A stretch of DNA of 64,000 nt from Escherichia phage W70, in sequence record OP778610; one strand, 5' to 3'. Below the pieces are notes generated by a model, which worked only from the letters and a program-made list of their open reading frames with translations, was not told the DNA's origin and searched no databases. This document shows, in pieces, positions 8,286-9,160 of this stretch. Position numbers and translations under genes: made by a program. Position 1 is the stretch's first letter, and every line of letters begins with the position of its first letter.

Positions 8286-8631
8286 AGAAGGGCGCTTGCA
8301 GTGCGTATAAGTTGTATTATGTTAAATGCAGATCGAAATCGGTATTCTAAACCAGATTCAGAAGTCAATAGAAATCTTTAACTTTATTGTTGGGGCAGCA
8401 CAACATTTTTCTTGACAAGTCGAATCAAAGATGTATTGTGGATTGAAAATAAATGAAGATAATGCTTGACTTCTTGGATATTTTGAAAACATCGGACCCC
8501 CTCCCCCTCCCCCACGGTCGCCGTGCCTGGCAGCAGTATCGATACGCTAGGATATTTTAGCCCCTACTGGACAAGACACCCCCCCGTCAGTTATAATGGG
8601 GGTATACCTATAGAAAAGTAAGGAGGTTGTA

Positions 8632-9120
8632 GTGGTAATGTTGAGGGTTCCCTCTTCGGACGAATTGGAGCTAATAAAAGAATACCTTGAACTGTCAGAC
8701 GCGTCACCGACAGGACTTGTGTGGAAAAAGAAACCTAGTGCAAAAGTTTATGTTGGGGAGCCAGCTATGCTCTGCATAGATAGCGGAGGCTACTATCGTG
8801 GAATGTTCAAGAAGAAAGGGTATGCTGCACATCGTATTGTCTTCTATCTTTACCACAACCGTTGGCCTACTGGGGAGATAGACCATATAAATGGGGACAG
8901 GTTGGACAACTCACCCCCTAACTTGAGGGAAGTTGACAGATCTTTTAATTCAGCTAATAGGGGTAGGGGCTACCAAGTGTTGGACAATGGTACATTCCTA
9001 GCTCAAATAAGGAGACAAGGTAAAACATATAAAAAAACATTCAATACGGAAGAACAAGCCATCCGATGGAGAAAAGAGATGAGACTATTCCTTTACGGAA
9101 CAGATATTTGGCAGCAGTAA
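8632..9120 (+). CDS. HNH homing endonuclease (HNH_3/AP2-type)
   Basis: DHINGDRLDNSPPNLREV motif; paralogous to ORFs at 48684 and 52876. Confidence 0.8.
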   Translation: MVMLRVPSSDELELIKEYLELSDASPTGLVWKKKPSAKVYVGEPAMLCIDSGGYYRGMFKKKGYAAHRIVFYLYHNRWPTGEIDHINGDRLDNSPPNLREVDRSFNSANRGRGYQVLDNGTFLAQIRRQGKTYKKTFNTEEQAIRWRKEMRLFLYGTDIWQQ

Positions 9121-9128
9121 TGTAAAGA

Positions 9129-9160
9129 AGGACACCCTAAAAGGTGTCCTTAATTTTTTG
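9129..9160 (+). terminator. rho-independent terminator
   Basis: GGACACC-loop-GGTGTCC hairpin plus T-tract. Confidence 0.6.

Follow-up and report, generated by a model that had tools for sequence, protein, structure and literature searches.

The gene W70_248 of Escherichia phage W70 (sequence record OP778610) is described here within a window of 64,000 nucleotides, the whole stretch of DNA that was analysed. It probably encodes a free-standing I-HmuI-like homing endonuclease with an AP2 domain, and the W70 copy would have arrived by homing or by ordinary recombination. The DNA specific to this cassette would cover about 8590-9151 and include the -10 element, the Shine-Dalgarno sequence, the open reading frame (ORF) and the terminator (Table 1). 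As far as aligned alleles tell, the cassette lies at a fixed point of a conserved non-coding element between convergent gene blocks, a point common to the genera Septuagintavirus and Certrevirus and mostly empty. The proposed genus Septuagintavirus, subfamily Vequintavirinae, has W70 as its type phage (PMC11370258). In the deposited 137,323-bp contig the ORF is a 100% match to the NCBI entry W70_248, "hypothetical protein", and neither HNH nor homing occurs in the main text of the W70 paper (PMC11370258). W70_248 is a new, previously unannotated free-standing HNH-AP2 endonuclease of a well-known kind, orthologous to a published one of Certrevirus.

Protein family and fold

The original prediction, made from the DNA letters alone, had placed an HNH gene on the plus strand from a GTG at 8632 to 9120, and family searches bear it out. 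The product matches the Pfam profile HNH_3 (PF13392) with E=5.5e-13 (48.8 bits for a cut-off of 24.8, profile positions 1-45 of 46) and PHROG 99, 'HNH endonuclease', with E=3.9e-43. The in-frame GTG is an alternative to the deposited start and would give 162 amino acids. Among solved structures, I-HmuI (PDB 1u3e) is the top match by sequence (E=0.014). The same chain, 1u3e_M, is also the top Foldseek match of the AlphaFold2 model (mean predicted local distance difference test score 85), with a probability of 0.97 and a whole-chain TM-score of only 0.40, a low value expected because the domain orientations differ. Residues D82, H83 and N104 of W70_248 align with D74, H75 and N96 of I-HmuI, which in the I-HmuI structure paper are reportedly the catalytic and metal-binding residues of the beta-beta-alpha-metal motif. 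Six residues are invariant across 8 homologues (D82, H83, N91, N95, N104 and N107). By family, modelled fold and catalytic residues, W70_248 is thus predicted to be an intact I-HmuI-type HNH_3 ('HNN') endonuclease.

The C-terminal part of the model consists of strands 112-114, 120-126 and 129-135 followed by a helix at 138-153. Residues 112-155 superpose on the AP2 domain of Arabidopsis TEM1 at 1.1-1.4 Å over 45-47 columns (probability 1.00). The Pfam AP2 profile stays below threshold on W70_248, and the homologue P0005 has a precomputed PF00847 assignment. On the evidence of the model, the C-terminal domain is an AP2-type DNA-binding fold.

I-HmuI, a nicking enzyme of Bacillus phage SPO1, resembles W70_248 in the equivalents of D74, H75 and N96 and in the Asn that replaces the last His of the motif. 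The two proteins are only ~21% identical and differ in their C-terminal DNA-binding module, the AP2 fold being that of W70_248. Their settings differ too: I-HmuI is encoded by a group I intron of a DNA polymerase gene, and W70_248 stands alone in non-coding DNA. An Rfam scan of 7100-10100 at E<=1 found no group I intron and no other family, and the gene is a stand-alone ORF between genes, outside any intron or intein. In the order of its domains W70_248 agrees with the free-standing HNN-AP2 endonucleases of the Xanthomonas oryzae phages Xp10, OP1 and Xop411 (PMC2248197), in which an HNN nuclease also precedes AP2 and the boxes HR.., WP, DH, DN and NLRE recur. Gain, degeneration and loss are described for those genes too (PMC2248197). 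They are distant in sequence, however, belong to siphoviruses, are dispersed over several loci and have no site in common with W70_248. The record of phiTE_097, one of the Certrevirus orthologues, is annotated as similar to an OP1 protein.

Selection has apparently maintained the gene. Proportions of non-synonymous and synonymous differences (pN and pS) between W70_248 and its orthologues are 0.28-0.31 and 0.84-0.85, respectively, and the ratio of non-synonymous to synonymous rates (dN/dS) between L007, a Logan contig, and the HNH gene of Certrevirus phage CB7 is 0.34. Between W70 and CB7 the synonymous sites of the gene are saturated; with pN at ~0.3, this indicates that the gene has been kept functional over a long time.

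The family is very common, with tblastn relatives in 1,307 phage records. The minus strand of the window has two further HNH_3/PHROG 99 paralogues, at 48753-49193 and 52909-53364, which are 41% and 39% identical to W70_248. Both are common to W70 and phage A73 at 100% DNA identity. The remaining relatives cover just 71-76% of 48000-54000, and these paralogues may be present/absent polymorphisms too.

Gene setting and expression signals

W70_248 lies in a 2,226-bp gap that extends from the stop of a plus-strand gene (7466) to the stop of a minus-strand gene (9693), between convergent blocks. The other five mechanical ORFs of this gap have no PHROG match. W70_248 is, by this measure, the sole supported gene of a 2.2-kb convergent intergenic region, where the original prediction had described the only plus-strand gene of a repeat-rich non-coding junction of about 2 kb. 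The gap is indeed full of repeats.

A promoter-like TATAAT and a terminator of its own had also been claimed for the gene, and both are recovered by the promoter scan and by folding (Table 1). The -10 hexamer is the same in all five alleles that carry the gene (HNH+), from two genera, and the TGGACA -35 hexamer occurs in all five at a comparable distance. The Shine-Dalgarno sequence of the orthologues, at the equivalent place, is ATGGAGG. The W70 terminator is predicted to form a 9-bp hairpin at 9128-9151 (-14.7 kcal/mol, z=-3.35); in CB7 a hairpin of different sequence stands at the same place (-15.8 kcal/mol, z=-4.2), and across HNH+ alleles the stem sequences vary while the hairpin is kept. 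Promoter, Shine-Dalgarno sequence and terminator, all predicted, are thus present and conserved in all HNH+ alleles.

Table 1. Features of the W70_248 locus (positions in the window)
Feature	Position	Strand	Remarks
C-rich tract CCCCCTCCCCCTCCCCC	8497..8513	+	Conserved backbone, outside the mobile cassette
Conserved block ACGGTCGCCGTGCCTGGCAGCAGT	8514..8537	+	3' end is the apparent left recombination boundary of the HNH allele
Leader of the HNH allele	8538..8591	+	Certrevirus/metagenomic-contig type, not A73 type
Sigma-70-like promoter TGGACA-18 nt-TATAAT	8568..8597	+	Predicted; score 11/12, the region's best in the scan
Shine-Dalgarno sequence AAGGAGG	8620..8626	+	Read off the sequence
W70_248, HNH(N)-AP2 endonuclease gene	8638..9120 (including stop)	+	160 amino acids from ATG, as deposited
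Intrinsic terminator, stem AAGGACACC/GGTGTCCTT then AATTTTTT	9128..9159	+	Predicted hairpin and T-run
Conserved downstream backbone motif AATTTTTTGGCGGGGAGGTATAAAACATAAAAAGTGG	9152..9188	+	Right edge of cassette-specific DNA
W70-specific segment	9189..9234	+	~100-bp block instead in five HNH-less relatives; belongs to the replaced allele

Filled and empty sites in Certrevirus

The best full-length protein relatives found by tblastn in phage records are phiTE_097 and CB7_143 of Certrevirus, with 57.5% amino acid identity. Both genes are on the plus strand, after ~1.5 kb of non-coding DNA and just ahead of a convergent minus-strand block, and the gene at 7269-7466 upstream of the W70 gap is the orthologue of CB7_142. 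The CB7 leader aligns with that of W70 over the C-rich tract, TCGCCATGCCTAGCAGC and GATATTTT, and the alignment also includes the TGGACA-18-TATAAT promoter, the Shine-Dalgarno sequence and the downstream TTTTTGACGGGGAGGGTAAAAAC motif. Logan contigs have the same arrangement. The CB7 paper counts CB7_143 among the free-standing HNH homing endonucleases, present also in phiTE and absent from CR3 (PMC7344957, Table 3). The Certrevirus genes are orthologues of W70_248 at the same site and on the same strand, with homologous leader, promoter, terminator and downstream motif, and are likewise sporadic in their genus. They differ from it in genus and host and in their guanine-plus-cytosine (GC) content of 50% against 41%, and their own assignment to the homing class was made in silico only.

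A distant-DNA search with the CB7 locus obtained full coverage from CB7 and phiTE only. Other Certrevirus-type records that match past the left flank do so in two pieces and span ~400 bp less. The HNH+ set comprises W70, CB7, phiTE and the Logan contigs L007-L011. HNH-less alleles were read in five Septuagintaviruses, in the Certreviruses PcCB7V, CR9, P7_Pc, F1M1E, KaOmega, DU_PP_I and CR3, and in the Certrevirus-like metagenomic contig AGFS01061535; additional HNH-less Certrevirus records are known from split matches only. The seven Certreviruses and the contig (8/8) have one compact allele, ..CCCCTCCCCACCCCC-TGATCGCCATGCCTGGCAGC-.ATATCCATACGCTGAGATATTTTTCTGGTTTCTGGGCAAGAAGGGCCACCCC-TGATCGCGTTCT-AAAAATTTTGGCGGGAGGGTA.., relative to which HNH+ alleles have ~560 extra bases that begin immediately ahead of the -10 element and end with the terminator. 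HNH-less Septuagintavirus alleles are colinear with this empty site and have an extra filler of 100-125 bp further left. The gene is therefore sporadic within both genera, and HNH+ sequences are few.

On this comparison of alleles, the locus is best described as an old, recurrently occupied homing site. The original prediction of a recently inserted homing cassette has to be qualified for this reason. The free-standing gene and the HNH-less alleles among relatives that it would entail are both found; the locus is not newly occupied, and no DNA donor was found in the collections searched.

Two further ideas about Certrevirus were rejected. The HNH genes of CB7 and phiTE have zero differences, which is no proof of recent transfer given that the whole 5.0-8.2 kb block there is ~99-100% identical. 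The non-coding region was also considered as the pseudo-ToxI escape locus of phiTE, and this was discarded.

Allele boundaries in the sister phages

The nearest genomes in the phage collection, namely A73, A7_1, A5-4, vB_EcoM-LTH01 and UPEC06, are all HNH-less. In all five, homology to W70 ends exactly at 8537|8538, at the 3' end of a block that is conserved across genera as TCGCCATGCCTGGCAGC. W70 and A73 are identical over 8301-8537. All DNA up to 8537, C-rich tract included, is common to the sister phages and therefore belongs to the backbone. For the leader that follows (8538-8591), blastn gives no alignment with any of the five sister phages, and CB7, phiTE and the Logan contig L007 have leaders that align with it; over 8475-8585, W70 is 78% identical to the metagenomic contig L100. 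This leader is probably flank DNA that was co-converted with the cassette.

On the right side, the downstream motif at 9152-9188 is found in HNH+ and HNH-less alleles of both genera. Homology to the sister phages is weak again at motif TTTTGGCGGGGAGGTATAAAA (~9152-9188) and becomes clear from 9235, 9247 or 9432, depending on the phage, with A73 resuming at 9235. Between the boundaries the sister phages have 162-246 bp versus ~615 bp in W70. Judging from these alignments, W70 and its sisters differ by a replacement (~700 bp against 283-380 bp) and not by a plain insertion.

The filler of 100-125 bp in HNH-less Septuagintavirus alleles (3652-3760 in locus sequence L001, 473-600 in L005) lies between ..ACGCACT and AGATATATTTGGGCAGG. 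In A73, A5-4 and UPEC06 it includes 2-3 tandem GACTGGTTA units. Neither W70 nor any Certrevirus allele has this filler, which has no match in the W70 window.

Gain or loss of the cassette

W70 and A73 have 2 differences over 10290-27991 and are 100% identical over 48000-54000. Such near-identity elsewhere, combined with the difference in the cassette, points to a recent recombination event at the locus. Near the cassette the two genomes diverge in patches at 8082-8300, 9440-9631 and 10123-10289, and within ~1-2 kb of it they show patches of 93-97% identity and indels. Left of the mosaic patches they are 93% identical, and A73 has ~6.7 kb extra just left of W70 7040. By these comparisons, 4359-10290 is a recombination hot spot in a block of small genes. 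The divergent patches around the cassette and the Certrevirus-type sequence at 8538-8585 together argue that the allele difference arose by recombination in this mosaic hot spot. The 150-bp segment 9281-9431 of W70 is near-identical to A7_1 and A5-4 (one mismatch to A7_1, counted by eye), which are otherwise ~91% identical to W70. A73, LTH01 and UPEC06 lack the segment, which looks like a small module exchanged separately beside the cassette. Co-conversion by T4 endonucleases extends up to 2 kb (PMC2790892), and the scale of the flanking patches fits this process by analogy, though it is unspecific to that mechanism.

A gain in W70 needs the fewest events because all five sister phages are HNH-less. 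On the sequences compared, acquisition by the W70 lineage from a donor not yet sampled is somewhat preferred to retention accompanied by replacement in A73.

Several observations weigh against the arrival of a homing cassette. The sister alleles are no clean empty sites, as they contain the 100-125 bp of extra filler and other indels. The divergent mosaic runs left to at least 4359 and includes the 6.7-kb indel, and general recombination in a hypervariable early region, without any endonuclease, could be the source of the polymorphism. The divergence of the HNH genes is in the range of the backbone, which is also expected from long vertical residence. Finally, a donor sequence was not found in the collections searched, the closest relative being 61% identical in amino acids. 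Among 50,697 phage records none has DNA like 8538-9160, IMG/VR does not contain the flank pattern, and the only close protein relative of W70_248 in IMG/VR is that of phiTE. One metagenome scan with the flank pattern gave a single related contig, which is HNH-less, and exact look-up of flanking proteins for further Septuagintavirus alleles gave A73 only.

A rival reading is an ancient resident, that is, an HNH gene present at the site before the split of Septuagintavirus and Certrevirus, kept by W70 and lost by the others through deletion or recombination, with mobility today unnecessary. Such a history is unlikely, although much of the data agrees with it. Orthologues are found at the same site, flanked by a homologous leader and trailer, W70-CB7 HNH identity is inside the 30-69% range of flanking backbone orthologues, synonymous sites between W70 and CB7 are saturated, the composition of the gene is near the W70 norm and the whole region is a recombination mosaic. 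In addition, GGCACAGATAT..TTGGGCAGG in the HNH-less Septuagintavirus alleles is similar to the final codons of the ORF (profile positions 640-660 in nhmmer). This stretch of ~20 nt is not counted as a gene remnant because it overlaps GATATTTGGGCA, a motif that recurs in the region (W70 9527; downstream copies in Certrevirus), and the same segment is colinear with the Certrevirus empty site. As a proof of deletion it was left as ambiguous. Long residence also has to explain why five other Septuagintaviruses, including the near-identical A73, lack the gene, for which a gain in W70 requires fewer events. Independent deletions are made unlikely by the empty site itself, which is nearly base-for-base the same in seven Certreviruses (from four host genera) and in a metagenomic contig. 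The sequence at W70 8538-8590, unlike that of the sisters and Certrevirus-like, is what would be expected of imported DNA.

Proposed mechanism

In the homing process favoured here, host RNA polymerase would transcribe W70_248 from its own promoter, by analogy with I-HmuI and T4 MobE. During a mixed infection, the enzyme would then nick or cut the HNH-less allele of a co-infecting relative near the site, and recombinational repair off the HNH+ genome would copy the cassette and some flank into the recipient. The W70 copy would most likely stem from an unsampled relative of ~41-43% GC, after the divergence of W70 and A73. The incoming cassette would have replaced an A73-like empty allele, with the left crossover in the block ending at 8537 and the right one at or beyond 9235. 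A strand-specific nick is predicted near ..CCACCCC / AAAATTTTGGCGGG.. of empty alleles and none in W70. For W70_248, we infer that the enzyme is an active nuclease, where it would cut, which way the cassette moved and that it may still be mobile.

T4 MobE and other free-standing HNH 'mob' endonucleases (PMC2790892) are comparable in being free-standing HNH genes between other genes, and the likeness of MobE to W70_248 concerns gene arrangement and the proposed mechanism. MobE has no promoter of its own and targets the conserved protein-coding gene nrdB, whereas W70_248 has its own promoter and a site in conserved non-coding DNA.

Alternative roles

W70_248 might instead be a domesticated nickase that acts on the surrounding repeat-rich non-coding region to the benefit of the phage, either by a nick for replication or recombination or as an AP2-mediated regulator. 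I-HmuI-type enzymes are nickases (PMC2790892), and the gene is surrounded by 2.2 kb of non-coding DNA with iteron-like repeats, a covarying long stem and blocks very highly conserved across genera. The gene has also been under long-standing purifying selection, but such selection is equally expected for an active homing endonuclease. Most relatives have the same non-coding region without the gene, which is therefore not required for the function of that region, and domestication is accordingly very improbable.

It is hardly credible that W70_248 is a packaging-associated HNH protein, a terminase partner cutting genome ends as in HK97-like cos phages: phage HNH proteins can act in DNA packaging, according to one report (PMC5304195), and the numbering of deposited relatives starts or their contigs end in the region (A73_1/A73_264; UPEC06 contig end), but the orthologue-bearing phiTE is terminally redundant and circularly permuted, which implies headful packaging without fixed ends (PMC3475682), the partial UPEC06 genome 'ends' there through an assembly overlap, no terminase is annotated or called in the surveyed flanks, where the neighbours are convergent small genes of unknown function, W70_248 is of the I-HmuI/AP2 type rather than the terminase-associated HNH type, and the gene is missing in most relatives.

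The C-rich tract and base composition

The original prediction had drawn attention to a pyrimidine tract ahead of the gene, to a GC-rich leader and to an atypical composition of the HNH gene. The tract is real, seven bases to the left of where it had been placed (8497-8513, not 8504-8520). It is the sole stretch with at least 12 C in 17 bases in the 64 kb, and therefore no chance feature. Together with the 24 bases after it, it is identical in 4/5 HNH-less relatives, and UPEC06 has one substitution in the tract. Certrevirus has equivalent C-rich tracts, such as GGCCCCTCCCCACCCCC. Its presence in HNH-less relatives and in another genus assigns the tract to the backbone, and the idea that it is part of the cassette was rejected. 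Folding of the tract region is no better than that of shuffled sequences. A long-range pairing of the tract with a downstream GGCGGGGAGG was considered, 7-8 bp being possible in W70 and CB7; in L007 the pairing is broken and no compensating change is present (judged by eye), and the proposal was dropped.

The leader is GC-rich as claimed (53.8% over 8500-8631, within the top 0.4% of windows), with much of this due to the conserved backbone tract, so that it is no sign of foreign DNA. As to the gene, the ORF has a GC content of 43.5% compared with 40.9 +/- 2.1% for 48 long ORFs (85th percentile), and its GC at third codon positions (GC3) is at the 94th percentile. Its codon-usage distance is ordinary, 30% of size-matched gene fragments being equally or more distant. 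GC, GC3 and codon usage are all inside the range of the window; a foreign origin by composition was rejected, and composition gives no support for recent import.

The surrounding non-coding region

Several conserved features were noted around the gene. A stem formed by 7736-7751 and 7825-7840 (16-19 bp enclosing ~70-110 nt) is kept in 8/8 sequences from two genera, with equivalents at ~3918-4062 in the CB7 locus sequence (L012) and also in CR3 (L114) and the metagenomic contig L100. Both partners differ between genera in six or seven of its pairs, and within Certrevirus in one pair. An inner hairpin of Certrevirus covaries as well (ATTTTGC/GCAAAAT, CGGCGC/GCGCCG, CGTTGC/GCAACG). The stem at 7736-7840 has no Rfam match, and it could represent a structured RNA not yet described, or a DNA cruciform.

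A non-coding island of 29 nt, GTGCGTATAAGTTGTATTATGTTAAATGC (8300-8328), is 96-97% identical in the compared Certrevirus phages and contigs, and even in Erwinia phages such as pEp_SNUABM_01. Its conservation is far above that of the surrounding DNA, and it could be a promoter or a protein-binding site. Short repeats occupy 9230-9630, with TGTGGACAAT/TGTGGAAA-type motifs, CCAAAATGGTTTA twice and ACAACATTTTTG three to four times (one more at 8400), along with small GCCTC..AGGC hairpins; analogous motifs exist in Certrevirus. From its sequence, this arrangement looks iteron-like. The Certrevirus non-coding region (~3790-4650 in the CB7 locus sequence L012; L108-L114) also contains near-consensus Fur-box-like sequences, for example GATAATGAGAATCATTATC and GGGAATGATTATCATT (identified by eye), which suggests putative binding sites of the host iron regulator in a lytic phage.

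Elsewhere in the window, five tRNA genes (Met, Tyr, Gly, Gln, Pro) are located at 61414-63124, matching the five tRNAs reported for W70 (PMC11370258).

Implications

The practical value is modest: a gene entered as "hypothetical" for the type phage of a newly proposed genus now has a name and a likely role. The W70_248 cassette accounts for one difference between the otherwise near-identical W70 and A73. With one filled and one empty allele and the same isolation strain (assumed for W70 from the source paper), the two phages make a natural pair for a homing cross. The striking C-rich tract is a conserved backbone feature and not a mark of foreign DNA.

More speculatively, and as something of a long shot, one homing-endonuclease lineage may have tracked a precise point in a conserved, structured, repeat-rich non-coding element across two genera. 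Its target would then be no protein-coding gene but a functional non-coding element, for example an origin, a regulatory site or an RNA gene, the nickase might be partly co-opted, and the 7736-7840 stem and the 8300-8328 island would be parts of an undescribed Vequintavirinae element. The 2.2-kb conserved non-coding region is the less understood object here and may merit a study of its own.

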